Counted from the stretch's first letter, positions 6,536 to 63,931 are shown. The stretch: DNA of 64,000 nt from Bacteroidetes bacterium GWF2_41_31 (GCA_001769215.1 MEOL01000044.1:4219-68218); one strand, 5' to 3'. Made by a program: numbers and translations. The notes: generated by a model not told the origin, from the sequence alone.

Positions 6536-6825
6536 GGTATCGGTTAGAGGTGAAATCAATCTCCATAATCCCCCCACATCAGCCCAAAAATAAATCACCA
6601 AAATAATGACTCTAAAAATCAAACCAATAAAATTAATTCTTAGATTTACACGACCAAACACCCGATGATCTATTTACAATGAAGAAGAAGGAAATCGTTT
6701 TAACTAATTATAAATGGTTATAATTGAAGCATATAGTGATAATGAAATTAAATGAAAACTAAAAGGAATTTTACCAACAAATCCTGTATAACAGGCATAG
6801 CGGCAATTGGCGGTATGCAGATTTT
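6536..6825 (+). repeat. conserved non-coding element, copy 1 (5' variant I), upstream of the metallophosphoesterase gene
   Basis: By eye it aligns with copies at 47943, 58921, 8860, 10876 and 61114. The shared core is AAACCAATAAAATTAATTCYTAGATTTAC..CCAAACACCCGATGATC.ATTT.CAATGAAGAAGAA...TAGTGATAATGAAATTAAATGAA...GCATAGCGRCAATTGKCGG. Confidence 0.85.
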
Positions 6826-6987
6826 AATCTATATAGTAACAGGTCTCGATTGAAAACAGGGATAATCCCATGAGTTGATAAATAGGGCTATGATGAATCA
6901 AAAAAAATGAAGACCAGAAATTAATGATAAAACCGAGCGGATTCCGAAAAGCTTTATGAGTAGGAAAAATTAAATAATAAGTGTCCT

Positions 6988-8310
6988 ATGAAAACCATTC
7001 TGCGATTGTTAAGTGCATTTTTTGTGATGATATTCTTAAATGTATTCGCATCATGCGATAAGACAGATCCGACAGATCCTGAAATAAACCCCTTTAGCAA
7101 TGGGGGTAATGAGAGGAATATGATAGTTATTATCAGCGATTTGCATCTCGGCGCCGACCTTGATTATGCCGAATGCAAGGTTAACCTTCCCGCTCTTGAA
7201 AAATTGCTTAAACAGATAAAAGCAGCTCCTGATGTTAAAGAGCTTGTTATCGCGGGAGACCTGGTCGATGAATGGTTTGTACCGGCTACAACAGATACGT
7301 ATCAGGGTAAAGACCAGGCTGATTTTGTACAGCGACTTGCGACAGCCAATAAAGGCGTATTTGATGCAATAAACAGCATCATTCTGGAAGGGAATATTCT
7401 GGTTACCTATGTCCCCGGAAATCATGATTTAACCATTACGGCGGCAAATATTGAAAGTGTCCTTCCCGGGATAAACCAGGTACGCGATGAAGTGCTGGGT
7501 TTGGGTACGTATTCCCCGGCCGACTATCCTAAAATAGCCATTGAGCATGGCCACCGCTACAATTTTTTCTGTGCACCCGATCCTTTTTCAAATCAGGATA
7601 TTGCTCCGGGTACCATCCTGCCTCCCGGTTATTTTTTTACAAGAATTGCCGCTCTTTACGTTCAACAAGGAATGCCGTTACCGGGTGATACCACGCCCGT
7701 TGTAACCCCAAATGTTTCTGGCGGGGAGTCCCAGGATTTATTGTATCGATATTGGAAGATGTGGTATATGACGATTAATACGTTCCCGATAGAAAACAGA
7801 TTTGATGAGAAAATAATACATACAAACGTAAATGGATTCACGGGAAATTATTCAGTTGATGATCTTGTTCCTTCTCAATTATCTCCGGGCGGAATGATTA
7901 ATGTGAATCTCTATAATGGAATTCAGGACAATTGGGAGGCGCGGCAAACCCACAACAATGTGCCTGTACACATTACCACTGCCCATGCAATCGATTCTGT
8001 AGATTCAAGTACCGAGACCGATCACCATGCTAATCTGCAATACTTTATGAATCCCGAATCAGATAAAAGAATTGTCGTATTTGGTCATACGCATGTACCC
8101 AGAATGGATTCGACTGAAAATGATATCAATCAGAAATGTATTTATGTCAATTCAGGAACATGGATTGATCATAACCCGGGTAGAACCACGATGAATTTTG
8201 TAGTCATCACGCCACAGGGCGTTGATGCTTCTTCTCAAACTCTGGTAAAACTTTATAACTTTGAAAATGAAGTTGTAACAAAAATGAAGGAAAACTCATT
8301 GCGCTATTAG
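6988..8310 (+). CDS. calcineurin-like metallophosphoesterase, lipoprotein
   Basis: Signal peptide plus Cys (FASCDK). Metallophosphoesterase motifs ISDLHLG, GDLVDEW, GNHD and GHTHVP are present. Confidence 0.8.
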   Translation: MKTILRLLSAFFVMIFLNVFASCDKTDPTDPEINPFSNGGNERNMIVIISDLHLGADLDYAECKVNLPALEKLLKQIKAAPDVKELVIAGDLVDEWFVPATTDTYQGKDQADFVQRLATANKGVFDAINSIILEGNILVTYVPGNHDLTITAANIESVLPGINQVRDEVLGLGTYSPADYPKIAIEHGHRYNFFCAPDPFSNQDIAPGTILPPGYFFTRIAALYVQQGMPLPGDTTPVVTPNVSGGESQDLLYRYWKMWYMTINTFPIENRFDEKIIHTNVNGFTGNYSVDDLVPSQLSPGGMINVNLYNGIQDNWEARQTHNNVPVHITTAHAIDSVDSSTETDHHANLQYFMNPESDKRIVVFGHTHVPRMDSTENDINQKCIYVNSGTWIDHNPGRTTMNFVVITPQGVDASSQTLVKLYNFENEVVTKMKENSLRY

Positions 8311-8326
8311 AGGTAAACGCATGTAA

Positions 8327-8500
8327 ATTTATACTGGCTTAGATAAAGGAATAATTCGGTTCAAGTATGTTAAAGGCGGTATTTCGCAAACCGATACAGA
8401 AGATGTACATTTTGCTCAGGCTATAAACTATTTGGAAGCATATAATCTTGAAATTGGGTTACTTATTAACTTTGGCGAAATAAGTTCAAAATCCAGCAGC
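8327..8500 (+). pseudogene. C-terminal fragment of a GxxExxY (PDDEXK_3) family protein
   Basis: The translated frame reads ..DTEDVHFAQAINYLEAYNLEIGLLINFGE.., which matches the conserved C-terminus of GxxExxY proteins. There is no N-terminal half and no start codon. Confidence 0.5.
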
Positions 8501-8525
8501 CTGAATAATAAAAAATACAGTTCAA

Positions 8526-8760
8526 ATGAATCAAAAAAATCATCTTTCAGACATCATAATATATCAAACTGAAGACGGAAATACAAAAATTGAAACTCGG
8601 TTAGAAGATGAAACTGTTTGGCTTACAATTGACCAAATGGCAGAACTTTTTCAAAAATCCCGCTCAACAATTAATGAACACATTCTGAATATTTACGAAG
8701 AGAAAGAACTTGACACAGAACAATCTATGAGAAAAATCGGAATTTCCGATTTTTCCGGAA
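8526..8760 (+). pseudogene. N-terminal fragment of a RhuM-family protein
   Basis: IIIYQTEDGNTKIETRLEDETVWLTIDQMAELFQKSRSTINEHILNIYEEKEL is the typical RhuM N-terminus. Similarity stops after about 75 aa, and the ORF then reads through REP hairpins and repeat sequence to 8930. Confidence 0.6.
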
Positions 8761-8820
8761 GTAAGTTGTCCTATTTTGGGGGACAAGCTCCTCTCAGCAA
8801 AGTTTCATGCTACCATGCCT

Positions 8821-8845
8821 CCTGCCTTCGGCAGGTAAACCTGCC
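8821..8845. repeat. REP-like nested hairpin (CCTGCC-TTCG-GCAGG / GGCAGG-TAAA-CCTGCC)
   Basis: Overlapping perfect palindromes read directly. It belongs to the same family as 10814, 14874, 44548 and 59844. Confidence 0.8.
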
Positions 8846-8859
8846 GACTAGTGCCACTA

Positions 8860-9198
8860 CCCTGTCATATTATTCCAAAGCAACTCTTTCTAAATTGTGC
8901 GCAGTTAGTGAATCGGAATGTGATACCTAAAGCATCCCGATAAACTTATTACCAAAACCTGACAAACAACTCCATAAATTCTTAACCCCCAATGTAAAAC
9001 CAAAAGTATTAATTCTTAGATTTACCCCACCAAACACCCGATGATCCATTTACAAGAATAGTAGAAACCGGATTAACAAATTATAAACGACTATGATTGG
9101 ACAATTTAGTGATAATGAGATTAAATGAATACTGAAAGATTATTTTACAACAAAGTTTATATAATAGACGTAGCGACAATTGGCGATATACGGATGTT
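8860..9198 (+). repeat. conserved non-coding element, copy 2 (5' variant II)
   Basis: It shares CTTATTACCAAAACCTGACAAACAACTCCATAAATTCTTAACCCCCAATGTAAAACC plus the common core. It ends at GATGTT, 96 nt before ATG 9295. Confidence 0.85.
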
Positions 9199-9294
9199 GT
9201 GTGGCATTAACCAGGGGTTCGCAACATTAGGAGTTATCTAAAATAACAAAATTAAACAGGACTTTTATTAAATTTTTAACCAAAAACATAAAAA

Positions 9295-10755
9295 ATGCTC
9301 AAGACTCTTATTTACGCAACTATTTTTTTATTTGTAAGCCAGGCTTACTCTCAGGGTCAAATAAAACAAATTGATTATGGAAAACTTCTTTTTAATTCAT
9401 ATCCAACATATGATATGGTTGTTGATCTTGGAGAAGGTAAATTTGTAATGCCAATTGTAACACTAAAAAAACAAGCTTTACTTGATTGCTATAGTTATGA
9501 TTTACAGAAGATTTATAGTACACCTTTTAGGCAGTCCATCAATTCAAAAAAAGACAAATTTGCTTTAATTACATCATTTCATGAAAATTCAAAGACGCTA
9601 TATGCATTAAGGCAGGATAATTCAAATAATAAGTATTTCATTGAATATCTAAAAATTGATCCGAAATCAGGTAAAACAATTGATCAGGAAATACTTTTAA
9701 AGGACCAGCAGTTCCCAAATGCGTATTATTTCTCCGATAATAAAGAATATTTTGTTGTTATACCTCTAATTAGTTTAAATGGTCTATACGAATATGAGCT
9801 ATTCAATTATAAAGGAGAAAAATTGTACACCTCAATAATAGAGAACAAAGAAGCTCAAAGTTTTTCTGGCTTATTAAATGTAATGACAGTTTCTGATCAT
9901 GGTGACGTTTATGTTGAACGCAGACTTGATGAAGGACACTATTCATTCGATGCTTTTGATGTTTCCGGGAAGGAGATTGTAAGACTCCCATTAAAAATTG
10001 AAAGTAAAAATGGAGAAGTTGTCGATCTTATTATGACTAAATCCGGCGATAGAGAGATCATAGTTACAGCATTACTCGGAGATAAAAAGAACTTTGAACT
10101 TAAAAATTGGGTTATTGATTTCAAAAAACAAGAATTGCAGTTGATTAGTTCTTTTGACATCAATGAAGAAATAATTGGCAAATATATGGCCAGTCTTGAT
10201 AAGGCTCAGATAGTGAGTGTTAAAACACCAAAACCAACCAATAATTTCAAGGACTTAAGTATAGTAAAGATACATTACGTGGAAGGCCAGATAATTGCTG
10301 TGCTTGAATCATATGAATACACAAGGGGAATGCTTGGAACAACTAGTGCGTGGGGTACAAGTAACGATACATATATTATTTCAACAAAATTGAATGGTGA
10401 TTTGAACTGGGTATTTGCGTTACCGAGAAAAGTTGCTCAAAGTCTGTCAAAATATAAATTATTTGGGCCAATGGGAGAAACGGTTAAAGTAAAAACTGAT
10501 GTAATTGATGGTGTTTTAAAAGTTATTACAACGGAAAATTACTCAAATGGAAATTACGGCTATGAAGTACTTAGGGAGATTGATTTATCAACGGGTGAAG
10601 TATCATTTCCAAAAAGATTGCAAAATAAAGAAAATGCAGTATTTGATTTTTCATTTTATGACTACTACAAATGGATAAGTACTGATGAAATAATAATGAT
10701 GACAGCAAAAGGATTTGGCTTTAAACTAGTCAAGATTAATACAAAAAATAAATAG
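9295..10755 (+). CDS. hypothetical secreted protein
   Basis: Signal peptide MLKTLIYATIFLFVSQAYSQ. The gene is AT-rich, and I recognised no family. Confidence 0.6.
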   Translation: MLKTLIYATIFLFVSQAYSQGQIKQIDYGKLLFNSYPTYDMVVDLGEGKFVMPIVTLKKQALLDCYSYDLQKIYSTPFRQSINSKKDKFALITSFHENSKTLYALRQDNSNNKYFIEYLKIDPKSGKTIDQEILLKDQQFPNAYYFSDNKEYFVVIPLISLNGLYEYELFNYKGEKLYTSIIENKEAQSFSGLLNVMTVSDHGDVYVERRLDEGHYSFDAFDVSGKEIVRLPLKIESKNGEVVDLIMTKSGDREIIVTALLGDKKNFELKNWVIDFKKQELQLISSFDINEEIIGKYMASLDKAQIVSVKTPKPTNNFKDLSIVKIHYVEGQIIAVLESYEYTRGMLGTTSAWGTSNDTYIISTKLNGDLNWVFALPRKVAQSLSKYKLFGPMGETVKVKTDVIDGVLKVITTENYSNGNYGYEVLREIDLSTGEVSFPKRLQNKENAVFDFSFYDYYKWISTDEIIMMTAKGFGFKLVKINTKNK

Positions 10756-10813
10756 CGCCACACCGCAATGCATTTACTTCATGGAAGTATACAGTCTGAA
10801 CCTTTCTGACTAC

Positions 10814-10848
10814 GGCAGGTTCACCTGCCTACGGCAGGTAAACCTGCC
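10814..10848. repeat. REP-like tandem hairpins GGCAGG-TTCA-CCTGCC-TAC-GGCAGG-TAAA-CCTGCC
   Basis: Two perfect 6-bp stems read directly, with a third pairing possible between them. Confidence 0.8.
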
Positions 10849-10875
10849 GTGGGTAGATAAACCGACATACAAGTT

Positions 10876-11243
10876 CCCCTGCGCTGTCATATTATTCCCA
10901 CGCAATTCTTCCTAAATTGTGCGCATTTATTCAATCGGATGGTGATACCAAAAGCATCCCGACAAACTTGTTACCAAAACCTGACAATCGAATCCGTAAT
11001 TTCTTAACCACCAATGTAAAACCAATAAAATTAATTCCTAGATTTACACCACCAAACACCCGATGATCTATTTACAATGAAGAAGAATGAAACCGATTAA
11101 ACAAATTATAAACGACTGAAATTGAATAATGTATTGAGAATGAAATTAAATAACTACCAAAAGGAACTACATCAACTGTACCCTTATTATATATATAGCG
11201 GAAATAAACACAATAGTAAGGTAGTTAGCACGTAGTTAGCTGC
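10876..11243 (+). repeat. conserved non-coding element, copy 3 (5' variant II, divergent 3' end)
   Basis: It aligns with copy 2 from CCCTG..GTCATATTATTCC through the core. It ends in GTAGTTAGCACGTAGTTAGCTGC, 20 nt before ATG 11264. Confidence 0.8.
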
Positions 11244-11263
11244 AACTTTAACAAAGTACATAT

Positions 11264-12307
11264 ATGAATAATAGTTCGAGTTCAAGTGTCTTAACAGTAT
11301 TTTATTCGTGGCAATCAGATCTTCCTCCGGAAAATAATAAAAAAGCAATAAAAGGAGTATTAAGAGATGTATTTACGAATATTGAAGAGGAAATTAATGA
11401 ATTGGAAATATTTCTTGATGAAGCCACAAGAAATACTGCTGGTAGTCCAGATATACCATCAACTATTTTTGATAAAATTGAAGCATCTGATATTTTCATT
11501 TGTGATCTTACGACAATAAACAGTGACTCACCAATAGGAACAAGAAAAGTTCCAAACCCAAATGTTTTAATCGAATTAGGTTATGCAATAGCTTTATTAG
11601 GTTGGAATCGAATTATCATGCTATTTAATAAAGCACACGGTATTTTTCCAGATGATTTACCATTTGATATTGCAAAAAGACGCATTACAAATTTCAAAAT
11701 GGAAAATGGAAATGATAAAAATTCAAAAGGAAACATACAAGCAATTTTAAAAAAAGCGATAATAACCATCATCGAACAAAAACCAGTTAAACCATTTGAA
11801 AACAAAGGTTTAAAACCTCTTGAAAAAAAAACTAGAAGAGATATTACAAATATCGTTTGGGCTCTAAAAACTATTAACATACCTATCTTGGACGAATTCA
11901 TTTCGGAGTTGCCTTTTAAAATCAACAGTAAGATATTTCATTTTTGGGAAGGATTTAACGGAGTAATAAATAGCAGTCTATTTCATGTATATGATAATAC
12001 AGTTATGTTATTATTTAAAGAAATACATACTCATTGGGAAAACACCTTATCATTTGGACATAAATATAACGCAATAGACAAATTTGGCAATGCTATATTT
12101 GGAAGTCCAGATGATCCACGAACTGACCAAAGAACACAAGATGATTATAAATTTATTGGCGAAGAAAGAATAAAATTAAAAAATGATTTTCGGACAATAT
12201 TGGATTATATAAGAATTAATTATATAGATATTGACTTGGAAGAAACGAGTCAATATGCTCTCGATGAGTATAATAATTTTTATAAAGGATTCCATTCAAA
12301 TTACTAA
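11264..12307 (+). CDS. TIR-like / nucleoside 2-deoxyribosyltransferase-like N-terminal domain protein with an unknown C-terminal domain
   Basis: N-terminus VFYSWQSDLP .. SDIFICDLT .. NPNVLIELGYAIALLGWNRIIMLFN resembles the Rossmann-like TIR/NDT/SLOG superfamily pattern. I did not recognise the C-terminal ~170 aa. Confidence 0.5.
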   Translation: MNNSSSSSVLTVFYSWQSDLPPENNKKAIKGVLRDVFTNIEEEINELEIFLDEATRNTAGSPDIPSTIFDKIEASDIFICDLTTINSDSPIGTRKVPNPNVLIELGYAIALLGWNRIIMLFNKAHGIFPDDLPFDIAKRRITNFKMENGNDKNSKGNIQAILKKAIITIIEQKPVKPFENKGLKPLEKKTRRDITNIVWALKTINIPILDEFISELPFKINSKIFHFWEGFNGVINSSLFHVYDNTVMLLFKEIHTHWENTLSFGHKYNAIDKFGNAIFGSPDDPRTDQRTQDDYKFIGEERIKLKNDFRTILDYIRINYIDIDLEETSQYALDEYNNFYKGFHSNY

Positions 12308-12314
12308 AAAAGCA

Positions 12315-12438
12315 GCAGCTAACAAAGATGCATATACTTTATGGCGGGTTACGTTATGAAAATGAGTATTTTAGTTCCAAATATAAATCATGGTAGACAG
12401 AAAGATTTGTCTTTCAAAGTCCGACACAAAGCATATGC
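12315..12438 (+). repeat. direct repeat S1 (upstream flank of the R-M unit)
   Basis: GCAGCTAACAAAGATGCATATACTTTATGGCGGGTTACGTTATGAAAATGAGTATTTTAGTTCCA...GACAGAAAGATTTGTCTTTCAAAGTCCGACACAAAGCATATGC recurs at 14812-15018. Confidence 0.85.
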
Positions 12439-12533
12439 ACGCCCGCTAGAGTCAATTTAAAGTGCGTCAGCGTAATGAAATACTTGATTTAAAAACACTA
12501 TTTTTGAAAAATTGCATTACTTAAAAAACTCTC

Positions 12534-13283
12534 ATGAAGAAATTAGATTTATCGAAAGTAAAGAAATATGTTGAGGATAATGTAGGTGAGTTCCACCAAA
12601 AAAGGATTGATAAGCTTGGACTATTGAAACTAAAAGATGTTTTAAGAAGAAAAAACCCTTATTTATTTAAGGCGAAAAATATTATGACAGCTCAAGAATT
12701 GATACAAGGAGTTGTTGATGCATATATTTCTTCTAGTGAAGAAGGGATTTTTGGGAATTGGCTTGAAGGATTAGCCGTATTCGTTAACAGACAAGTTTAT
12801 GGTGGTAGAAAATCTGGAATTCCGGGCGTTGACCTTGAATTTGACAAGGATAATATTAGATATATTGTTTCGATTAAATCAGGCCCAGACTGGGGAAATG
12901 ATGACCAAATTAAAAAGATGGTTGATAATTTTAACTCTGCACGAAAGGTCTTAAAAACATCAGGAGCCCAAATTAATGTTACTGCCATTAATGGTTGTTG
13001 TTATGGAAGGACAACACAAAGAAACAACTATAAGCCTAAAGGTGATTATTATAAATATTGCGGTCAAGTATTTTGGAGTTTTATCTCAGGAAATAATGAA
13101 TTATATAAAGAAATAGTTGAACCTCTTGGATATCTTGCAAAAGAAAAGAATGATGATTATTTGAAAGCATATGCACAAAAAATAAATCTTTTTACAAAAG
13201 AACTGGCCAATGATTTTTTTAAAGATTCTGGAGAAATTGATTGGGATAAGCTGCTCGAATTTAATTCAAAAGGAAATATTTAA
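12534..13283 (+). CDS. putative type II restriction endonuclease
   Basis: It lies immediately upstream of, and co-oriented with, a C5 DNA methyltransferase. A PD-(D/E)xK-like segment GVDLEF..IVSIKSG is present. I could not determine the family (Eco47II/TdeIII/PmeII-like) by eye. Confidence 0.55.
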   Translation: MKKLDLSKVKKYVEDNVGEFHQKRIDKLGLLKLKDVLRRKNPYLFKAKNIMTAQELIQGVVDAYISSSEEGIFGNWLEGLAVFVNRQVYGGRKSGIPGVDLEFDKDNIRYIVSIKSGPDWGNDDQIKKMVDNFNSARKVLKTSGAQINVTAINGCCYGRTTQRNNYKPKGDYYKYCGQVFWSFISGNNELYKEIVEPLGYLAKEKNDDYLKAYAQKINLFTKELANDFFKDSGEIDWDKLLEFNSKGNI

Positions 13284-13360: not shown

Positions 13361-13374
13361 TAAATAAGGTACCT

Positions 13375-14793
13375 ATGATAAGTGTTGAAGATGCATCAAA
13401 GAAATTAAATATTTCTCCACAGCAAGTGAGAAATCTGTGTAGGTCTGGAAAACTAAAAAGCGAGAAAGTTGGTAATACTTGGGTAATTGAGGATTCAATT
13501 CTTGAATACTATTTTGATACAACCTGTTCAGGGGTTGCAGAAGACCAAGTGAAATATGAAAAAACACCAGCCTCTAAAGAATCTCCTATAGCTTTGAGTT
13601 TTTTTAGTGGAGCTATGGGATTGGATATAGGCATTGAAAAAGCTGGTTTTAGAACAATATTTGCGAGCGAAATCAATAATGCTTGTAGAAAAACGATATT
13701 AAAAAATAAGCCAGAAATAAATCTAATTGGTGATATTAGAGATTATACGTCACATGAAATTCGTAATATATCGGGCTTATCTGAAAATGATGATATTGAT
13801 TTAATTATTGGAGGACCTCCTTGTCAATCTTTTAGTACCGCTGGAAAAAGGAAAGGTTTTGAAGATGAAAGAGGAAATGTTTTTCTCACATATATAGACA
13901 TAATAATTGCTCTTAGACCTAAATATGCTGTTATTGAAAATGTTAGGGGATTATTATCAGCGCCTTTAAAACATAGACCTCATAATTATAGAGGAGAAGG
14001 TTTTGAGGAATTAACAGAAGATGAATTACCTGGAGGAGCTTTAAATCATATCATTAAGAAATTAAAAGACAGTGGATATGCTACTTCATTTAATTTATAT
14101 AATTCAGCCAATTTTGGAACGCCACAAAAAAGAGAAAGAGTTATTTTAATATGTTCAAGAGATGGTAAAAAAGCTCCTTATTTAGAACCAACGCATTCTG
14201 AAAATGGAAATTTTAATTTGCCTAAATGGAAAACTTTTAGAGAGACAGTTAGTCATTTAGAAAATTGTCAACATGATTATATCAATTTCCCTGACAAGAG
14301 GTTACAATATTATAAACTTATAACACAAGGAAATAATTGGCGAAGTTTACCGATCGACCTACAAAAGAAAGCGATGGGAGCATCATTCTTTTCAGGAGGT
14401 GGCAAAACTGGTTTTCTAAGGAGGTTGGCTTGGGATGAACCAAGCCCAACACTATTAACTCATCCAGCTATGCCAGCAACGGATCTTTGCCATCCAGAAG
14501 AAAACAGACCACTAAGTATCCAAGAATATAAAGCAATTCAAGAATTTCCAGATGGTTGGAAAATAGAAGGAAGCATTCTTGAGCAATATAAACAAATTGG
14601 AAATGCTGTACCAGTAGGTTTGGGTTTTGCAGTAGGCAGTTTATTAATGAAATTAATCAAGGGGGTAAAAATTAAGAACTATATTGGCTTCAGATTTTCA
14701 AGATATTTAAATACTGATGAATTAAATTGGAAAAGAGACTTTGATAAGCAGAGAAAGATCGAAATTCAAGCTCAATTAGAGTTGCAAACATAA
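13375..14793 (+). CDS. DNA (cytosine-5)-methyltransferase with an N-terminal helix-turn-helix extension
   Basis: C5-MTase motifs I FFSGAMGLDIG, IV GGPPCQSFSTAG, VI ENVRGL, VIII QKRERV and X GNAVPV are present. The first ~50 aa (ISVEDASKKLNISPQQVRNLCRSGKLKSEKVGNTWVI) look like an excisionase/MerR-type HTH. Confidence 0.92.
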   Translation: MISVEDASKKLNISPQQVRNLCRSGKLKSEKVGNTWVIEDSILEYYFDTTCSGVAEDQVKYEKTPASKESPIALSFFSGAMGLDIGIEKAGFRTIFASEINNACRKTILKNKPEINLIGDIRDYTSHEIRNISGLSENDDIDLIIGGPPCQSFSTAGKRKGFEDERGNVFLTYIDIIIALRPKYAVIENVRGLLSAPLKHRPHNYRGEGFEELTEDELPGGALNHIIKKLKDSGYATSFNLYNSANFGTPQKRERVILICSRDGKKAPYLEPTHSENGNFNLPKWKTFRETVSHLENCQHDYINFPDKRLQYYKLITQGNNWRSLPIDLQKKAMGASFFSGGGKTGFLRRLAWDEPSPTLLTHPAMPATDLCHPEENRPLSIQEYKAIQEFPDGWKIEGSILEQYKQIGNAVPVGLGFAVGSLLMKLIKGVKIKNYIGFRFSRYLNTDELNWKRDFDKQRKIEIQAQLELQT

Positions 14794-14811
14794 TAGAATA
14801 AAAGGGAAACT

Positions 14812-15018
14812 GCCGCTAATAATGCATATACTTTATGGCGGGTTAAGTTGTGAATATAAGTATTTTAGTTCCACTTATCTGCCGGTTTACCTACCTTCAT
14901 GCCTTCGGTAGATAAATCGGTAGGTGAACCTACCGTAGGAACGGAGGCAGGAGGCATGAAATATAAATTATCTTGGACAGAAAGATTTGTCTTTTGAAGT
15001 CCGCCACAAAGTGTATGC
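14812..15018 (+). repeat. direct repeat S2 (downstream flank of the R-M unit), interrupted by a REP-like insertion
   Basis: It is collinear with S1 except for about 86 nt at 14874-14959, which carry REP hairpins bounded by TTCATGCC...GGCATGAA. Confidence 0.85.
14874..14959. repeat. REP-like hairpin cluster inserted in S2
   Basis: Contains GGTAGG-TGAA-CCTACC (14919-14934) and an 8-bp terminal inverted repeat TTCATGCC/GGCATGAA. This segment is absent from S1. Confidence 0.75.
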
Positions 15019-15159: not shown

Positions 15160-15540
15160 CTATCTGAATACCACCAATAACCCACCTGTAATAAAGGCCA
15201 GTACCCACCAAATGTAGGCGTATCTTGAATAAAGATGCAGTTTTTTGGGTACTTCTGAGTTCATGCCTGATCGGGCAATGAGTTTCCACATGAAAATGGC
15301 GTCCATCATCATGCCCAGCAAGGAGGAATAACCAATAAAACCATGCAGGGTAAAACCGCCTTTATTCGATCCAATGATCATGAAAATGGTAGCCGTAATA
15401 TCCAAAAGAACCCCCAGCGTTAGAAATGTAATCACCCGTTGGCCAATATGTCTGGTCCGCTGTTCGGTTATAATTCCAATGGAGTAGGCTATCAAAGCGA
15501 AAAATACAACGCTGCTGCCAATTTGTAGATAGGTATTCAT
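15160..15540 (-). CDS. small integral membrane protein (4 TM), function unknown
   Basis: 126 aa with hydrophobic helices. I am not confident of any family assignment. Confidence 0.6.
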   Translation of the reverse strand: MNTYLQIGSSVVFFALIAYSIGIITEQRTRHIGQRVITFLTLGVLLDITATIFMIIGSNKGGFTLHGFIGYSSLLGMMMDAIFMWKLIARSGMNSEVPKKLHLYSRYAYIWWVLAFITGGLLVVFR

Positions 15541-47942: not shown

Positions 47943-48228
47943 GGTATAGGGTTTTAGACGTGAGATCAATCTCAATACCCCACATCGCCCAAAAGTAATT
48001 CACCAAAATAATGACTCTAAAAATCAAACCATTAAAATAAATCCCTAGATTTACCCCGCCAAACACCCGATGATCCATTTGCAATGAAAACAAAGAACCG
48101 ATTTAACTAATTATAAACGGTTATGATTGGATAATATAGTGACGATGAAATTAAATGAATACTAAAAGGAATTTTAACAACAAAGGCTTTATAATAGGCA
48201 AAGCGACAATTGTCGGTTCACAGATGTT
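47943..48228 (+). repeat. conserved non-coding element, copy 4 (5' variant I)
   Basis: It aligns with copies 1 and 5 along the full length. It contains the perfect palindrome CGACAATTGTCG (48204-48215) and ends at GATGTT, 35 nt before ATG 48264. Confidence 0.85.
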
Positions 48229-48263
48229 GGGTACAATTTTACGAAAGACAACAAAACAAACCA

Positions 48264-49271
48264 ATGACACATTTTCCAGTAACAAATTCTAATCTTTCAG
48301 CAACACATATAGGACTGTTTTTACAGGAAAAATATTCCTTGAGCAAAGACACCAAATGCCAATTAATAAAAGCTGGTATCAATGACACATACCTGGTAAC
48401 CGACAACATAGACAAATTTGTATTTAGAGTTTATAGTTTAAATTGGCGTTCAAAAACGGAGATTGATGAAGAAATTAAATTGCTGAATCAACTAAAAGCA
48501 AATGCCCTTTCAATTTCCTATCCACTTTCAGACAAAGAAAGCAACTACATACAAACACTAAACGCCCCGGAAGGTGACAGATTTGCAGTGCTTTTTACAT
48601 TTGCATCTGGTGAAAAACAACACGTAATTTCAGAACAAACTCATTTTCAAATTGGTCAACTTATGGCTCGACTTCATAAGATAACCAATAATCAGAAATT
48701 AAATCGCATAGACTATACACCCGAAGTAATTCTTATTGACTCATTAAAAAAAGTATCAGTCTTTTTGAAGAGTGATACAGAAGAAATGAACTTTATGAGA
48801 TCGGCTCAAACATACTTGTTAAAGGAGTTTGAAAATGCTGACATTTCGCAAATTAGACAAGGAATTGTTCATCTTGATATTTGGTTTGACAATCTAAACA
48901 TCACCACCGACAACCAGGTAACTATTTTCGACTTCGATTTCTGCGGAAACGGTTGGCTTTGCTTAGATATTGCTTACTATATTTTACAGCTTCACAACCT
49001 TGAGAAATATGAAGCTAAAGATTATCAACCTAAAGTTGACAGTTTTATTAAAGGGTATGAATCTGTAACATCAATAAAAGCAGAAGAAAAACGACTTACT
49101 CCAATGCTTGGTGTAAGTTTATACTTTTTCTATTTAGGTGTTCAATGTCAGCGTTACGACAATTGGTCGAACTCCTTTTTGAGTGAGAACTATTTGAAAA
49201 GATTTATCAATGGACTTGTTAAAAGGTACTATGATATTTATAAACTTGGGGACAATAAAAACTGTGCCTAA
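48264..49271 (+). CDS. phosphotransferase enzyme family protein (APH / homoserine-kinase-II-like)
   Basis: Catalytic loop HLDIWFDN and IFDFDF (DFG-like). The TTG at 48210 lies inside the repeat, so the ATG at 48264 is preferred. Confidence 0.75.
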   Translation: MTHFPVTNSNLSATHIGLFLQEKYSLSKDTKCQLIKAGINDTYLVTDNIDKFVFRVYSLNWRSKTEIDEEIKLLNQLKANALSISYPLSDKESNYIQTLNAPEGDRFAVLFTFASGEKQHVISEQTHFQIGQLMARLHKITNNQKLNRIDYTPEVILIDSLKKVSVFLKSDTEEMNFMRSAQTYLLKEFENADISQIRQGIVHLDIWFDNLNITTDNQVTIFDFDFCGNGWLCLDIAYYILQLHNLEKYEAKDYQPKVDSFIKGYESVTSIKAEEKRLTPMLGVSLYFFYLGVQCQRYDNWSNSFLSENYLKRFINGLVKRYYDIYKLGDNKNCA

Positions 49272-57601: not shown

Positions 57602-58627
57602 TTATACATCTCTCCCACACGACCGTCGCTTTATTAGTTTCACGGGTAATAGTACCTGTTTTTTATCTTTTGTTAAGCCATTGATTTCATCCAGCAGAAT
57701 ATTAACCGCGAATTCACCTATTTCCTCAATAGGCTGGGCAACAGCAGTTATGGTAGGACAGCTCAATCGAAATAAATCAATATCATCAAAACTCACTATG
57801 GCAACATCCAGGGGTATACTGATATTCATTTCATTCAGATATTCCATACAGGCCACCGTTATGTTATTATTAACCGAGAACAGGGCGTCGATTTTATACG
57901 GAGGTTCCAGTAACTCACTTAATACAGCCCTTACTTGTTGCCGTATGTCAGAACAGTTAATGGTTCGGATTAATTTATTGTTGCATCTCATCCCATTATC
58001 TTTAAGCGCGCTCCGGTATCCGCGTTCCCTGTCTGCAATTGTACTTAAGTATGAAGGTGAAATTTTCAGCAAACCGATTTTCTGGTGTCCGTTTTTTATA
58101 AGTTGTTCCGTGGCTTCATAAGCCCCGGTAAAATTGTCGACACCAGCAAAATTTGTTGATAATTTGGGTAATTTCCGGTCGATTAAAACAAATGGATAGT
58201 TTTCCTTCTTTAGCCACGAAAAAACAGCACCATTTTTCTGAGTGGTAGAAACGATAATCCCGTCAACCTGCCGTTCTTTTAACATGTTGATCAATTCAAT
58301 TTCTTTTTCAGGATTTTCGTCAGAGCTGCAAAAAATCAAATTGTAGTGATGTTGGTTTGCCACCTCTTCGATTTTTTTGGCCATTTTAGCATAAAATGTA
58401 TTTGAGATATCGGCTACAATAAGTCCAAGGGTTTGCGTTTTTCCAAGTCGTAGACCTCTTGCCATGTGATTTGGCTTGTAGTTCATTTCTTTGGCTCTCT
58501 CCAACACGATTTTCTGTGTTTTGGAACTGATGCCATTTTTATCTCCCTGATCATTTAAAACGAAAGAGACCAGCGTTTTAGATACGTTTAGGCTTTTGGC
58601 GATATCGCTGAGAGATTTTTTTTTCAA
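57602..58627 (-). CDS. LacI-family transcriptional regulator
   Basis: N-terminal HTH LSDIAKSLNVSKTLVSFVLN plus a periplasmic-binding-protein-like sugar-binding core. Confidence 0.9.
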   Translation of the reverse strand: MKKKSLSDIAKSLNVSKTLVSFVLNDQGDKNGISSKTQKIVLERAKEMNYKPNHMARGLRLGKTQTLGLIVADISNTFYAKMAKKIEEVANQHHYNLIFCSSDENPEKEIELINMLKERQVDGIIVSTTQKNGAVFSWLKKENYPFVLIDRKLPKLSTNFAGVDNFTGAYEATEQLIKNGHQKIGLLKISPSYLSTIADRERGYRSALKDNGMRCNNKLIRTINCSDIRQQVRAVLSELLEPPYKIDALFSVNNNITVACMEYLNEMNISIPLDVAIVSFDDIDLFRLSCPTITAVAQPIEEIGEFAVNILLDEINGLTKDKKQVLLPVKLIKRRSCGRDV

Positions 58628-58920
58628 AGCATGAAATTTTACTAAATCAATTTAGATTTAACTTTCTTATGCATATTAGCTGATATACAACATCTTAAAA
58701 AAAATAAATGTAACAGTGTGTAAAAATAAAATATTAAATAATACAATCCGTTTTTCTTCCAGTATTTTTTTTCAGGTTCCACAAAATATTTGATTCAGTC
58801 TTGCTAAAAAGATGCAGATTTCTCTCGTAAAAAAAATAAAAAAGAACCGCCGAATTTATCCCTGACATGCATGTCAGCAACTGCCAGACTCAGTAGTGGG
58901 AGGATGATTCTCCTGGCGGA

Positions 58921-59162
58921 CAGGTTTTAAAAGTGAAATCAACCTCCATAACCTCCCATTGCCCCAAAAATAAATCACCAGAATAATGACTCTAAAATTT
59001 AAACCAATAAAATTAATTTCTAGATTTACACCCTCCAAACACCCGGTGATCCATTGCAATGAAGAAGAAAGAAACCGATTTGACTAATTTTAAAAGAAAA
59101 TAATTGATGCATATAGTGATAATGAAATTTTAGCGATCACCTTAATGCTCCCATGCAGACTT
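58921..59162 (+). repeat. conserved non-coding element, copy 5 (5' variant I, internal deletion of about 55 nt)
   Basis: It aligns with copies 1 and 4 to AATGAAATT, then resumes at TAGCGATCACC..ATGCAGAC. It ends 41 nt before ATG 59204. Confidence 0.8.
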
Positions 59163-59203
59163 GAACTGACTATACTAAACTAACAGTAACTAAAAAGCTA
59201 AAA

Positions 59204-59770
59204 ATGAAACGGGGAACATTTATTTTATCGGCACTTGCACTCATTCCATTGGGTATTTTTGCTAAAATCAGAACCAGCATTTTTATGAGAACAGAAAAAG
59301 GGTTCAAAGTAAAAGCTGGCGAAGCCCGATTTGGGGAACACTATAAAATGAAAGGCGTCACACTAAATAACTTAGACATAAAAATCTCCGGGGCTGACAC
59401 CGATCATGATTTAGCTGTGTTTGAGCAAACCGGATTTACACCAAATGGCGGGCCTCCATTGCATATTCATCCATTTCAGGACGAATGGTTTTATGTAATT
59501 GAAGGAGAATATTTATTTCAGGTTGGTGATGACAAATATCAAATGAAATCAGGAGACACCATTTTTCTTCCACGAAATGCGCAACACGCCTTCATGCAGT
59601 TATCGGAAAAAGGAAAAATGATCGTATCTTATTTGCCGGCAGGAAAGATGGAAGCCTTTTTTAAGGTTACGGACAAATGGACCTCTCCACCGACAAAAGA
59701 AGAAATCGTACAAGTTTTTGCTGACCACGACATGGAAGTTGTGGGCGAACCACTTAAAGCTGACAATTAG
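59204..59770 (+). CDS. cupin-domain protein with signal peptide
   Basis: HIHPFQDEWFYVIEGE ... GDTIFLPRNAQHAF form the two cupin motifs. Confidence 0.75.
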   Translation: MKRGTFILSALALIPLGIFAKIRTSIFMRTEKGFKVKAGEARFGEHYKMKGVTLNNLDIKISGADTDHDLAVFEQTGFTPNGGPPLHIHPFQDEWFYVIEGEYLFQVGDDKYQMKSGDTIFLPRNAQHAFMQLSEKGKMIVSYLPAGKMEAFFKVTDKWTSPPTKEEIVQVFADHDMEVVGEPLKADN

Positions 59771-59843
59771 TATAAACCACGAACCGCTAACAACATGTAT
59801 TTGGAACTGAAAGAATTCGGGATGGGTAAATTGGTAAACCTTT

Positions 59844-59912
59844 CTGCCGGCCAGGCAGGTATAAGTCCAATGCATCCCTGTCTCTGCCTTCGGCAGGAAA
59901 TCCGGCAGGCAG
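59844..59912. repeat. REP-like hairpin cluster
   Basis: CTGCC-GGCCA-GGCAG, CTGCCTTCGGCAG and CCGGCAGGCAGG, the same family as 8821 and 10814. Confidence 0.7.
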
Positions 59913-60007
59913 GAAATAAACATTGTGCTAATCAGTAAGGAAGATGAATTTAATCAGCTAATGCACATAGCGATGAAAGTTACTCAACAGTTAAAAACAA
60001 CTTTAAA

Positions 60008-60889
60008 ATGAAATATCTGATTTTTCTACTATTTTTTTACTTTTCCTTGATTTCGAAAGGACAAGAAAGTTTGGGCTTTCGCCAGAAATTGGCGTACGAT
60101 TTCTACAACAATGGTGTCCAGGCATTTAGATTGAACAAATATATCATGGCGGACTCCTTATTTTCCCAATCTCTTAATTATGAAATCAACGGAGATGCCT
60201 TATTCAATCGTGGAATATTAAGGTTCATTTTAAATGATACCTGTTCGGGATGTTCCGATTTATTTTTTGCAGCTAGTGGATTTTCGGATAAAGAAGCATT
60301 AGGTATTTTTTATAAAACTTGCGTTAAATCAGTCGACACGACTTATTATGATAAAAAATTTCAAATTTTAAATAGTAAAACTGATTACAAGTATTACGAT
60401 GAGTTATTAATTCTTAAATGTGATAGCTCTGTACAAGGGTATGTCCATAAAAAGAATCATAATAAAACGCATCAATCGCCAGTCGATTATAGAATCGATA
60501 CTAAAAATGTGGATATCATTGCATCCTATTCTTCACATAATTCGCTTAAATATTATGATTTTATTTATTTTTCAACATTTGAGGAAGACAATAAAAAAGT
60601 AATCGAAAAATTTAAAAGTGAACTTGAAAAATTTTTAAATTCAAAGTATAATTTTGAAGATATCCCATATAAGGATCGATATTGTACAGTTACAATTTAT
60701 ATAAATCCAATAGGTGAGACTATTGATTATGAGTTAAATGAAAATCCATTTGATTTTTTTGACGAATCACTTAAAGAAAATATTAAAAAAGATATTGTCA
60801 TTTACTTCAAAAAAATACCACAGTTGAAACCAGCTTTACATTTCGAAAAACCTGTAAACTTTGAATATACATTTTACTTTGGAATATAA
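60008..60889 (+). CDS. hypothetical secreted protein
   Basis: Signal peptide, very AT-rich, no family recognised. It is followed by ACCTAAC and a 9-bp inverted repeat, CATTTAGAT/ATCTAAATG. Confidence 0.55.
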   Translation: MKYLIFLLFFYFSLISKGQESLGFRQKLAYDFYNNGVQAFRLNKYIMADSLFSQSLNYEINGDALFNRGILRFILNDTCSGCSDLFFAASGFSDKEALGIFYKTCVKSVDTTYYDKKFQILNSKTDYKYYDELLILKCDSSVQGYVHKKNHNKTHQSPVDYRIDTKNVDIIASYSSHNSLKYYDFIYFSTFEEDNKKVIEKFKSELEKFLNSKYNFEDIPYKDRYCTVTIYINPIGETIDYELNENPFDFFDESLKENIKKDIVIYFKKIPQLKPALHFEKPVNFEYTFYFGI

Positions 60890-61113
60890 CATTAACCTAA
60901 CAAATCATTTAGATTATTAAAATGCTCAGTTTCTACTGTTCATCTAAATGTCAATTCCGGGTTTTTTTATCGAACTTATTCAATCGGTATTTAATGGTTA
61001 TCATGGCATATTTGTAGTTATCCCCCCAAGTGAACTCCCCTTTCTATCCCCTGTTTGTTAATGCATAACAGAATTACCTACCTTTATGCGATTAATATCA
61101 AACTAAATGATAA

Positions 61114-61477
61114 CCCCCCGCTGGCGCAAGTTTGCAACTTGTGCCTTTCCTTCACCCAAGCCCTGTTAACCCAACTTGTGCGCATTTCGCCAGGCATAGC
61201 ATGTAACTTAGAGAATCTCAACTACCTTATTACCAAAACCTGACAAACAACTCCATAAATTCTTAGCCCCCAATGTAAAACCAATAACATTAATTCCTAG
61301 ATTTACCATTCCAACTCCCGATGATTGGTTACAATGAAGAAGAAAGAAACCAATTTGACTAATTATAAACGGTAATAATTGGAGCATAAAAGATAATGAG
61401 GTTAAATGAAAACCAAAGGACGTTATAACAATAAAGTCTATAACAGTCATAGCGACAAGTGACGGCATGTGGATGTT
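61114..61477 (+). repeat. conserved non-coding element, copy 6 (5' variant II with P module)
   Basis: The P module (GGCGCAAGTTTGCAACTTGTGCC...AACTTGTGCGC) is followed by CTTATTACCAAAACCTGACAAAC and the common core. It ends at GATGTT, 12 nt before ATG 61490. Confidence 0.85.
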
Positions 61478-61489
61478 ACCAGAAAATTT

Positions 61490-62077
61490 ATGAACGAACA
61501 TAATAATTATCTTGCTGACATTTTTGGAATCAACAAAAATTATTTCGTTGACTTTTTTTCTTTACTGTCAGTTAAAAATGTTAATAAATCAGAATTTATC
61601 TTGCAAGCAGGTGATGTTTGTAACTATATCGGAATTGTAATTGAGGGTTCGTTAAGAACTTATTACATTAACGAAAATGGAGAAGATGTTAGTTTCTTAT
61701 TCCATTTTAATCATAAGTTAGAAAATTTGGTTTTCACAGACTATGAAAGTGTACTACTTGGAAATAAATCAAAATTGAATATCCAGGCTTTGGAAAATTC
61801 TACTGTGTTTTTGCTTTCAAAAAATGATTTAGAGAGTCTTTATCTGAAAGATATATATTGGCAAAATTTTGGCAAAAGAATGACTGAAAGAATTTATTTA
61901 TCTGCTAAAAAGAGGGTTGAAGATTTACTCTACTATTCACCAGAAAAACGCTATCTCAACTTACTTACAGATAATCCATTGATATTTCAAAAAATCCCTC
62001 AAAAGTTTATTGCCAGTTATTTGGGCATTACACCACAATCATTAAGTAGAATCCGAAAGCGCATTACTATTTATTAA
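61490..62077 (+). CDS. Crp/Fnr-family transcriptional regulator
   Basis: cNMP-binding-like N-terminal domain and a C-terminal HTH, IASYLGITPQSLSRIRKR. The GTG at 61469 lies inside the repeat, so the ATG at 61490 is preferred. Confidence 0.85.
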   Translation: MNEHNNYLADIFGINKNYFVDFFSLLSVKNVNKSEFILQAGDVCNYIGIVIEGSLRTYYINENGEDVSFLFHFNHKLENLVFTDYESVLLGNKSKLNIQALENSTVFLLSKNDLESLYLKDIYWQNFGKRMTERIYLSAKKRVEDLLYYSPEKRYLNLLTDNPLIFQKIPQKFIASYLGITPQSLSRIRKRITIY

Positions 62078-62124
62078 CTTAAGTGAACGTTTCTTTCTTG
62101 TCTCTATAATATCTTTGCCTCAAA

Positions 62125-63282
62125 ATGATTAAAATAGATAGCACAATGACAGAAACTGTAACCATAATCGGAGGAGGAATTGGAGGCCTCACTACCGCTT
62201 TAACTCTAAAGCAAAAAGGATTGTTCATAAATATTTTTGAAGCTTCTGCCGAAATTAAAGCTGTTGGTGCCGGAATTATTATTGCAAACAACGCAATGCA
62301 GGTTTTTAAAGAATTAGGAATTCAAGACAAAATTGAAAAGGCCGGAAACAAAATTTCCTATATGAACATTACGGATCCTCAACTCAAGAATATTTTCGCA
62401 GTCGATTTAACTGAATATGAAAAAAAATATAGCGCTCATAATATTGCAATTCACAGGGGCGATTTGCAAAAAATACTTGCCAAAGAAATTGGCTACGACC
62501 ACATAAACCTATCAAAGCGACTTTCTAAAATTGAAAAAGGCAAATTATTTAAACTCACCTTTGAAGACAATTCAACCATAGAAAGTAATCTTGTGATTGG
62601 TGCGGACGGAATAAAATCAGTAGTTAGGAATCAACTTTTTGAAAAAAGTACTTTGAGAAATGCCAAACAAAAATGTTGGAGAGGAATTTGTGAAATTGAT
62701 TTACCAGAAAAATATCACAACGAACTTAACGAAGCATGGGGAAAAGGAAAGAGATTTGGTTTTGTTAAAATTAGCAATAAAAAAGTTTATTGGTATGCTT
62801 TGATAAACTCAAAAAACGCAGTATCTGATGATGTAAATCTACACGAATTGTTTGGCGCGTTTCACAGTGATATCTTAAATATGATTTCTGTGACAAACAA
62901 AGAACAAATAATTGTAAGCAATATTATTGACCTAAAACCAATTGACAAATGGCAAAGCGGAAATGTCTGTTTATTGGGAGATGCGGCTCACGCTACAACG
63001 CCAAATTTGGGTCAAGGTGCTTGCCAGGCTATTGAAGACGCTTATGTTTTAGGTAAACTTCTCGACAATGGAACTGCACTTGAAAATACTTTTAAAGAGT
63101 ATGAAAAATTAAGGCTAAAAAAAGCCCATACAATTGTAAACACAAGTTGGACAGTTGGGAAAATAGCACACATAGAAAACAGTCTTGGGATTTGGGCGAG
63201 GAATACCATTATGCAAAACCTGCTAAAATCAAGCAACAAAAAGCAAATGAATATGATTTTTAACTTAACAAAAATAATATGA
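62125..63282 (+). CDS. FAD-dependent aromatic-ring monooxygenase (UbiH/salicylate hydroxylase-like)
   Basis: IIGGGIGGLTTAL dinucleotide fold and GDAAHATTPNLGQGACQAIEDA. Confidence 0.88.
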   Translation: MIKIDSTMTETVTIIGGGIGGLTTALTLKQKGLFINIFEASAEIKAVGAGIIIANNAMQVFKELGIQDKIEKAGNKISYMNITDPQLKNIFAVDLTEYEKKYSAHNIAIHRGDLQKILAKEIGYDHINLSKRLSKIEKGKLFKLTFEDNSTIESNLVIGADGIKSVVRNQLFEKSTLRNAKQKCWRGICEIDLPEKYHNELNEAWGKGKRFGFVKISNKKVYWYALINSKNAVSDDVNLHELFGAFHSDILNMISVTNKEQIIVSNIIDLKPIDKWQSGNVCLLGDAAHATTPNLGQGACQAIEDAYVLGKLLDNGTALENTFKEYEKLRLKKAHTIVNTSWTVGKIAHIENSLGIWARNTIMQNLLKSSNKKQMNMIFNLTKII

Positions 63283-63677
63283 AAATGTACAAAATAGGAT
63301 CTATCGCATTTATCGCACTTGGCTTACTGCACATTATAGCTCACTTTTTGGGTACTTTAAATCCTGACAAAGCGACTTTTGATCTTCTAAATCAGATGGC
63401 TAATCATAAGATTCAACTGTTAGGAGAGCATAGTCTATTGAAATTTCATACAGGTTTTAGTCTTACGATGGGCTTTTTACTTTCAGTTTTTGGTGTTCAA
63501 AATTTATTGGTTGCTAAAACGGTCAACAAGAAGTATTTAATTTCAACAATAATCATTACAGCAATAACCTTCATATTATCAATAGCTTATTTCCATTTAT
63601 TAGCCACAACATTTATTTTTGTGTCTTTAATCTGTTATATTTTATCTTATTATAAATTATCGCTATCATCCGACTAA
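63279..63677 (+). CDS. small integral membrane protein, function unknown
   Basis: Four hydrophobic helices. An ATGA overlap with the monooxygenase stop suggests co-translation. Confidence 0.55.
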   Translation: MKMYKIGSIAFIALGLLHIIAHFLGTLNPDKATFDLLNQMANHKIQLLGEHSLLKFHTGFSLTMGFLLSVFGVQNLLVAKTVNKKYLISTIIITAITFILSIAYFHLLATTFIFVSLICYILSYYKLSLSSD

Positions 63678-63815
63678 ATTACAAACACAATCAAATACTA
63701 TCGTAACATATTGTTTATTAACGTCCATATTTCTGTTTTCGAAAAGCCCCCCTCTCTCGTCCTCGTTTGAGCGCAGTGGTAACGAGCTTGCAATTTTGCC
63801 AATCATTTTGGAAAG

Positions 63816-63931
63816 CCCCACCTGGCGCAAGTTTGCAACTTGTGCCTTTCTCTTCAGCCAAGCCCTGTTAACCCAACTTGTGCGCATTTAGCCAGGAATA
63901 GAATGTAACATAGAGAATCTCAACATACTTA
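63816..63931 (+). repeat. conserved non-coding element, copy 7 (P module only; diverges before the window end)
   Basis: CCTGGCGCAAGTTTGCAACTTGTGCCTTTC..CAGCCAAGCCCTGTTAACCCAACTTGTGCGCATTTAGCCAGG..GAGAATCTCAAC matches 61120-61230. Confidence 0.8.

Follow-up and report, generated by a model that had tools for sequence, protein, structure and literature searches.

A stretch of 64,000 nt from Bacteroidetes bacterium GWF2_41_31 (MEOL01000044.1:4219-68218), referred to here as the window, contains gene arrays flanked by lipoprotein, LacI and peptidase genes, in which unrelated accessory genes are each preceded by a copy of the same non-coding element. The element is a module of ~300-430 nt built around a universal core of ~90 nt. 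Its uniform orientation, its distance to gene starts, the diversity of the genes behind it, its arrangement in arrays, its mosaic construction and the turnover of genes at orthologous sites are matters of observation, from which its putative role as a promoter and leader for acquired genes is then assessed.

Copies of the element in the window and the genes behind them

The core is recognised by the motif TAGATTTAC-N9-15-CCGRTGAT, which a pattern scan of the window located seven times, always on the plus strand, with starts at 4067, 6641, 9017, 11039, 48046, 59021 and 61298. No match occurred in 100 shuffles of the window, and an nhmmer profile of the core returned the same seven sites and no others. 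The copies, designated c0 to c7, were recovered by means of a direct-repeat search and an eight-way alignment. A first-pass annotation of this DNA had reported seven copies, all on the plus strand and with two alternative 5' modules. The repeat family is real, the strand holds for 7/7 window cores and both 5' modules are evident in the alignment, but c0 had been missed and the last sequence counted (63816-63931) lacks a core. The copies were recovered at about the positions proposed, except that c2 and c3 begin slightly further upstream (at ~8821 and ~10810), and the copy placed at 58921-59162 is present but with a truncated 3' module.

The copies and the genes behind them, or cargo, all lie on the plus strand. 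In c0 (4026-4106), found by repeat search, motif and nhmmer alike, a type-C 5' module is followed by the core up to its ATG, where the copy is truncated; its cargo is a BrkB/YihY-family membrane protein (4104-5006). The next copy, c1 (6536-6835), has a type-A 5' module, a core at 6612-6702 with its TAGATTTAC box at 6641, and an X-type 3' module, and precedes a secreted metallophosphoesterase (6988-8310). Type-B 5' modules open both c2 (8821-9205; box at 9017), which ends in an X-type 3' module ahead of a secreted protein with no Pfam family (9295-10755), and c3 (10810-11243; box at 11039), which ends in a Z-type 3' module ahead of a protein with a weak match to the CAP12/Pycsar-type TIR domain (11264-12307). 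Further along, c4 (47943-48235; type-A 5' module, box at 48046, X-type 3' module) is a singleton flanked by two minus-strand core genes, and its cargo is an APH-family phosphotransferase (48258-49271). In c5 (58937-59125; type-A 5' module, box at 59021), which precedes a cupin (59204-59770), the X module ends ~103 nt after the box, a truncation judged against the related locus L155. The cargo of c6 (61114-61480; type-B 5' module, box at 61298, X-type 3' module) comprises a Crp-like regulator, a FAD monooxygenase and a small membrane protein (61469-63677).

The last of the series, c7 (63816-63931), consists of a type-B 5' module alone, without a core, close to where the window ends at 64000. 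This module is 90% identical to 61150-61229 and diverges at CTTA|GGGTCTGCTG, exactly where the core should begin. The sequence that takes the place of the core (63931-64000) had no match in the other loci of the family that were compared, and the break, CTTA|GGGTCTGCTGATTTTTCAAAAAATC..., may have arisen by rearrangement or by insertion of foreign sequence into the element. Elsewhere in the window, 6572-6651 is 83% identical to 47977-48056 and 88% identical to 58952-59031, and 8892-9033 is 87% identical to 10914-11055.

The gene identities first proposed for the window (metallophosphoesterase, secreted protein, TIR-like protein, APH phosphotransferase, cupin, Crp regulator with FAD monooxygenase) agree with the present assignments, as does the AT-richness of the cargo, whose regions have 28-35% GC against 40-47% for the core genes. 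When copies from related loci, described below, are taken together with those of the window, the first co-oriented open reading frame (ORF; at least 70 codons) begins 170-300 nt after the box in 44 of the 57 copies with enough flanking sequence for this distance to be taken. The 58 downstream proteins fall into 54 unrelated clusters (blastp, E<1e-5). Pfam families among the cargo include RhuM, SIR2_2, AAA_21 (AbiEii-like), KilA-N, NTP_transf_2, DUF4160 and SMR, in addition to metallophosphoesterases, LRR, TPR, TIR and type IX secretion system (T9SS)-tail proteins, and several proteins gave PADLOC matches to defence-candidate families, among them PDC-S05, PDC-S09, PDC-S11, PDC-S13 and PDC-S22 as well as to mad3, AriA and AbiLi.

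Between c1 and the metallophosphoesterase, the leader holds a DUF805 RNA (RF03081; 6902-6970, plus strand; 58.4 bits, gathering score 51.1) without a DUF805 gene behind it, and the pair of DUF805 RNA and metallophosphoesterase recurs in locus L153 behind a different, shorter variant of the element. Just upstream of c2 lies a truncated RhuM-like ORF (8526-8930, plus strand) with the N-terminal part only; full-length RhuM is the most recurrent cargo in other loci (8 members). Behind the cargo of c3, the segment 12305-15018 carries an EcoO109I-type restriction endonuclease (12534-13283) and a C5 cytosine methylase (13375-14793). This restriction-modification pair is bracketed by direct repeats of ~130 nt (12305-12438 against 14799-14878 and 14959-15018, 79-85% identity), which suggests that it was inserted with duplication of its flank, and its genes have canonical TAnnTTTG boxes of their own and no element.

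Modular anatomy and distribution of the family

All copies share a core of the form AAACCAATAAAATTAATTCC-TAGATTTAC-CCCACCAAACACCCGATGATCCATTTACAATGAA, in which TAGATTTAC is the least variable stretch, essentially invariant with an entropy of ~0, and the spacing between this box and CCGATGAT varies by 1 nt (17, 18 or 19 nt). At least five discrete types of 5' module can precede the core, and three discrete types of 3' module, X, Y and Z, of ~110-140 nt each, can follow it, X being the one that contains the palindrome CGACAATTGGCG. Among 74 distinct copies, 24 carry X, 32 carry Y and 7 carry Z, the remainder having short or unique leaders. The A-type 5' module is combined with X, Y and Z in 8, 10 and 4 cases, the B-type in 3, 5 and 2, and the D-type in one case each. 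The 5' and 3' modules assort freely across the universal core, and the element is a mosaic.

Compared in pairs, copies usually cease to be similar 20-100 nt upstream of the box and 40-200 nt downstream, and the similarity seldom extends into genes. On the 5' side, A-type modules fade out near an ATCTCC box at about -90. On the 3' side X, Y and Z all end in GTT(A/G), beyond which similarity drops. Since the 13-15 variable bases that come after GTT(R) are followed by a semi-conserved TAAAAAGAAACC block, the 3' edge of the element is fuzzy. The ATCTCC box is present ~85-95 nt upstream of TAGATTTAC in all 5' module types (for instance at 6556-6568); in the A-type it sits inside the inverted repeat GAGATCAATCTC and is preceded by a CCTGGCGGACAGG-TTTT hairpin, and it may be either a protein-binding site or the terminator of the upstream gene. 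Plus-strand CTGCC-TTCG-GCAG hairpins occur at 8822, 10825, 59844 and 59884 (4 against 0.09 expected), each of them placed either 3' of a cargo gene or at the start of a type-B module, the module of c2 beginning with the one at 8822; they may be 3'-end or terminator hairpins of the cassettes. Finally, GATGATCC (GGTGATCC in c5) lies 6-7 nt upstream of the core ATG in all copies (for instance at 6663-6686), and would be complementary to the universal 3' end of 16S rRNA, GGAUCAC(C).

The family extends well beyond the window. A loose pattern scan of species genomes gave 118 stretches, 116 of which were chance matches and two, L052 and L065, real; the element is present in the metagenome-assembled genomes PCUL01000184 ('Bacteroidetes bacterium CG18...') and PHDN01000024 ('HGW-Bacteroidetes-16'). 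With a stricter pattern 63 metagenome loci were obtained, the exact motif yielded 65 distinct copies including those of the window, and the nhmmer core profile gave 94 hits, corresponding to ~74 distinct copies in 65 loci. The hosts are environmental Bacteroidota from the subsurface or from bioreactors, and no match to the element was found in the plasmid, phage and IMG/VR collections. Within each locus the copies are co-oriented, with the sole exception of L174, and arrays comprise six copies in L158 and three each in L129, L172, L135 and L146. Six long contigs of the metagenome Ga0209417 together carry at least 13 copies, so that the family is scattered through a single population genome. 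Identity is 89-94% between orthologous copies and 60-87% between paralogous ones, which indicates that the family is old and under constraint, and not the product of a recent burst. In L052 a tRNA (4386-4459) lies ~140 nt before the core, and an identical tRNA sequence is found in L121; tRNAs are also present ~3.5 kb upstream of the element in L136 (77-150) and ~9.4 kb away from it in L161 (2991-3065), and a Flavo-1 small RNA in L120 (1112-1191).

The constraint on the core raises the question of what is being conserved. One answer would be a structured cis-regulatory RNA, riboswitch-like, or a small RNA, and the position in a long 5' leader, the palindromes of the X module (AATTATAA-N4-TTATAATT and CGACAATTGGCG), the folding of the X top strand, slightly better than that of shuffles (z = -2.5), and the fact that the known DUF805 RNA can sit in such a leader are all in keeping with it. 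Nevertheless, what is conserved is the primary sequence, in discrete variants, and folding gave little: RNAalifold found 0 pairs in 29 Y-type copies and 5 weak pairs (-0.96 kcal/mol) in 21 X-type copies, while helices drawn by hand showed pairing in 82.8% of cells, compared with 81.9% for shuffles, and 5 compensatory pairs against 4.1. In addition, Rfam searches of the window and 16 other loci, under both gathering and E-value thresholds, returned DUF805, tRNAs and Flavo-1, none of them overlapping the element, in line with the earlier failure to assign it to an RNA family. A structured RNA, also put forward in the first-pass annotation, is therefore highly improbable, the hairpins being at shuffle level.

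Coding by the core is harder still to credit. Its minus strand might specify a hydrophobic peptide such as a type I toxin (MDHRVFGGVNLGINFIG...), or its plus strand a leader peptide (MKKKETDLTNYKRL). Most copies do have one minus-strand frame, with an ATG, that stays open across the core, just as many copies have a plus-strand ATG with a short ORF. However, the three codon positions vary to much the same degree (0.50/0.53/0.46 for A-type copies, 0.71/0.70/0.61 for B-type copies), and the 1-nt length variants between the box and CCGATGAT run counter to a conserved frame. The minus-strand ORF has no constant C-terminus, its end differing widely between copies in both length and sequence; on the plus strand the ATG is lost in ~12 copies, indels shift the frame and several copies stop after 2-3 codons.

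Promoter-like signals and turnover of the cargo

Bacteroidota have unusual promoters and do not rely on Shine-Dalgarno sequences, and foreign genes in these bacteria need native -7/-33 promoters. In Bacteroides and Flavobacterium, the sigma-A promoter is made up of a -7 box, TAnnTTTG, and a -33 box, TTTG, ~19 nt upstream. Compared with this -7 consensus as commonly given, TAGATTTA agrees at 7/8 positions counting the n's and at 5/6 specified bases, the final G being replaced by A. The invariant -7-like box of the element is TAGATTTAC, at 6641 and equivalent positions, and it is the sole TAnnTTT[GA] box upstream of most cargo genes of the window. Truncated copies are instructive in this respect. 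In c0 the first half of the core is kept and the ATG of the gene is that of the core itself (4104), 37 nt after the start of the box, whereas in L158 at 2818 the core is cut ~19 nt past the box start and a KilA-N gene begins at +48. Similarly, the restriction gene, the methylase gene and the gene at 15160-15540 each have a TAnnTTTG box 33-50 nt ahead of their ATG. Since the geometry of the truncated copies is that of ordinary promoters in the window, we infer a promoter with this box as its -7 element. The location proposed earlier (TTTT-17-TAnnATTG, at 6697-6728) does not survive the comparison, as it falls inside the X-type 3' module and is absent from Y-type copies. A scan with sigma-70 and terminator consensus sequences was uninformative, its results being at shuffle level.

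The balance tips slightly towards a promoter with a long A-rich leader, reused ahead of horizontally acquired genes, with the cargo exchanged around it. A mobile promoter or 5'-untranslated region had been among the first proposals; it is the best supported of them, given the tie to gene 5' ends and the number of unrelated protein clusters, with promoter activity as its predicted part. Transcription would start ~5-9 nt downstream of TAGATTTAC and, because the start is placed there, every cargo mRNA would begin with one shared block of ~45 nt, (A)CCAAACACCCGATGATCCATTTACAATGAA, to be followed by an X, Y or Z leader module, a short cargo-specific stretch and the start codon. In this way the module would provide low-GC accessory or defence-type genes with native expression signals and possibly with common regulation. 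Promoter activity, transcription start site, co-regulation and the mechanism of recombination are in all cases predictions from sequence.

Several points weigh against this reading. The box ends in A where the consensus has G, no -33 TTTG is conserved at the usual spacing upstream of it in the alignment of the copies, and the implied leaders of 150-270 nt are far longer than is the norm in Bacteroidota. Moreover, 60 nt downstream of the box are conserved, exceeding what a promoter needs, and this excess implies an additional function, whether as an operator, an RNA-level signal or a recombination substrate. The consensus also contains a minus-strand match, TTTG-N19-TAATTTTA, the bases of which vary between copies. 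Furthermore, the putative activity and start site are read from the DNA itself, and the model leaves unexplained how new genes come to lie behind the element.

Evidence on the last point comes from comparisons between loci. As a whole element, c3 is 89% identical to L120 4765-5194, and both flanking genes differ; the distal core flank is 94% identical in the two, and everything between element and flank differs. In several pairs of loci more than 1 kb of upstream sequence and the whole element are shared, divergence setting in just before the cargo gene. A hotspot between an aldolase gene and xylB holds six cassettes in L158, at least three in L157 and two in L175. In L158 each of the six has an element ahead of it (five complete, one truncated), the cargo consisting of DUF4160/DUF2442 pairs, BRO-like, KilA-N and Fib_succ_major proteins and unknowns; one cassette has two genes (unk286 and unk128) with no element between them. 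In L146 (3756-3759) the 5' part of xylB abuts the left edge of the element (…GTGATGGAACC|CATCCC…), whereas the xylB of L158 is intact and downstream of the array; the L146 junction may be a rearrangement or duplication of the hotspot or an assembly chimera across repeats. The 845-bp unit formed by the element and the cupin gene (c5 in the window) is 94% identical in the window, L148, L159, L164, L174 and L119, and occurs in two contexts that differ in their neighbours on either side. A promoter-less gene of 1040 nt is present or absent between ...ATGTT|G and ...CCGTT|G, an indel that could reflect an integron-like G|TT junction just as well as deletion across the two GTTG microhomologies. Further breakpoints are at +19 in the core (L158 at 2818) and at +103 (c5).

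These dynamics favour host recombination acting on many co-oriented repeats. With numerous copies in chromosomal hotspots, recombination within or beside them could add, delete and swap genes, being homologous across the near-identical core and microhomology-mediated at the edges, and the outcome would be integron- or rAID-like arrays without a dedicated adjacent recombinase. Alternatively, a capture system resembling integrons or rAID-1, with its recombinase encoded elsewhere, might use the element or its 3' end as recombination site, in which case cassettes would enter and leave at one position, the conserved ...GTT(R) terminus of the X, Y and Z modules. Short, unrelated genes of low GC stand in co-oriented arrays with a conserved repeat between them, features published as hallmarks of rAID-1, and the cargo, with toxin-antitoxin pairs, SMR and DHFR-like proteins, resembles that of chromosomal integron cassettes. 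The free assortment of modules across the core and the common GTT(A/G) end after which similarity falls would also be expected, and the junctions of the 1040-nt indel are clean, the inserted gene having an RYYYAAC-like ACCTAAC ~55 nt before GTT.

Nevertheless, a site of this kind is rather unlikely. The window and the 65 loci yielded no tyrosine recombinase: the H-x-LRH catalytic box is in 0 of their 369 ORFs, and they contain neither a recurrent recombinase cluster nor a recurrent transposase. The consensus folding is empty of attC-like hairpins, and the single-stranded DNA folds of X, Y, Z and a 59-nt candidate site are no better than those of shuffles; z ranges from -0.9 to +1.2 for both strands of Y, Z and the candidate site, and the value of the X top strand given above comes from small local hairpins. 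The bases after GTT do not follow TTRRRY, the TAAAAAGAAACC block 13-15 nt past it blurs the edge, the breakpoints at +19 and +103 are not at GTT, and the sole clean GTT junction is equally explained by the 4-nt GTTG microhomology. Of the recombination site suggested in the first-pass annotation, then, the cassette-like arrays and the mosaicism are retained, while nearby recombinase, attC-like hairpins and sharp edges are all missing.

A further way to disperse such copies would be transposition of a non-autonomous element, derived from an insertion sequence (IS) or of the miniature inverted-repeat (MITE) type, with an outward promoter. The scatter of copies within the Ga0209417 genome would suit it, and promoter-bearing miniature elements such as Correia are a known precedent. 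However, as had been noted at the outset, the copies have no consistent terminal inverted repeats and there is no transposase in the window, nor is there one near the element in the 65 loci; target-site duplications are likewise lacking. Both edges are fuzzy, similarity decaying block by block, and orientation and distance to the downstream gene are fixed. Paralogous copies are old and orthologous ones stable, and the element is absent from the mobile-element collections searched, all of which makes transposition very unlikely. An invertible promoter was likewise rejected, no inverted repeats having been found.

The promoter and the recombination site could in principle be combined. Each unit would then be a portable promoter and leader together with a recombination site, and the whole a decentralised gene-capture platform in environmental Bacteroidota, a proposal that we regard as speculative and rather doubtful. 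Crossover in the near-identical core or at the ...GTT end would allow promoter-less foreign genes to be inserted, excised and exchanged, through the action either of a recombinase from another locus or of the host's homologous recombination on looped-out circles. If true, this would be a previously undescribed, integrase-less counterpart of integrons and rAID-1.

As regards the promoter and leader, their significance would lie in the unusual signals of Bacteroidota, on account of which foreign genes are poorly expressed unless they acquire native ones. A reusable promoter and leader before dozens of acquired genes would explain how such genes become functional, and the genes, many defence candidates among them, would form a co-regulated 'accessory regulon'. 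Moreover, the element would be a simple sequence tag for gene-gain hotspots in these genomes, the arrays offer a second, recombinase-less example for testing how rAID-like arrays arise in the phylum, and the 90-nt core is a candidate portable expression part for the engineering of Bacteroidota.

Relation to known systems

In integrons the cassette sites, attC, are imperfect palindromes of 57-141 nt with R''/L''/L'/R' boxes that fold as single-stranded hairpins, and clusters of attC without an integrase are known as CALIN. The likeness to these lies in arrays of unrelated, co-oriented and mostly single-gene units around a repeat, with toxin-antitoxin, SMR, DHFR-like and unknown genes among them. 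In contrast, the window and the 65 loci have no intI, and the intI/attI/Pc arrangement is not what was found in them. The repeat is 300-430 nt long, with neither an imperfect palindrome nor the R''/L''/L'/R' architecture, and each unit appears to carry its own promoter-like box, whereas the cassettes of an integron share one Pc. With Correia, ERIC and the IS-borne promoters of Bacteroides the element has in common that repeated DNA supplies expression signals to adjacent genes, a role that is putative in its case; it differs from them in having no inverted repeats, no relationship to a transposase and no target duplications, and in its fixed position and orientation relative to the gene.

A closer parallel is found in the putative mobile promoters (PMPs), defined as homologous non-coding sequences that precede unrelated genes in one genome (at least 80% identity, over 50 nt or more), which are neither IS nor known RNA and whose way of spreading is unknown (Matus-Garcia, Nijveen, van Passel 2012; PMC3575422). 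By this operational definition the element is a PMP, its promoter activity itself being putative. The genes behind it are not paralogous, with 54 clusters for 58 proteins and Pfam families that are all different. Nevertheless, most PMP families are pairs, whereas here 64 kb hold seven copies and a single population genome at least 13. Also in contrast to PMPs, the element forms co-oriented arrays, is modular (a core with discrete 5' and 3' modules) and is tied to low-GC cargo of accessory or defence type.

The rAID-1 arrays of gut Bacteroidales have a XerD-like tyrosine recombinase gene at the 5' end, followed by at least two co-directional genes at a GC content of 41% or less, with conserved intergenic motifs and orphan immunity genes as cargo (Ross et al. 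2019, bioRxiv 10.1101/471110; PMC12247911). Their intergenic repeats have been called 'reminiscent of integrons', and their biogenesis is considered unresolved (PMC12247911). The two have in common their occurrence in Bacteroidota, the co-oriented arrays of short genes, the skewed low GC and the repeated intergenic sequence. In fact, the window arrays at 4-15 kb and 59-64 kb are at 28-38% GC against 40-47% for the core, and the element itself supplies a conserved repeat between the genes. The cargo is broad, with enzymes, secreted proteins, toxin-antitoxin pairs and defence candidates as assigned by Pfam and PADLOC, no search having been aimed at immunity families such as those of T6SS. In contrast to rAID-1, copies of the element are also dispersed as singletons, the hosts are from the subsurface or bioreactors, and the window and the 65 loci are devoid of a XerD-like recombinase. 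Since rAID-1 is defined by the adjacent XerD-like recombinase, absent here, the element is not filed as a member of that group. It is kin to mobile promoters and rAID-like arrays, and not a categorically new entity.

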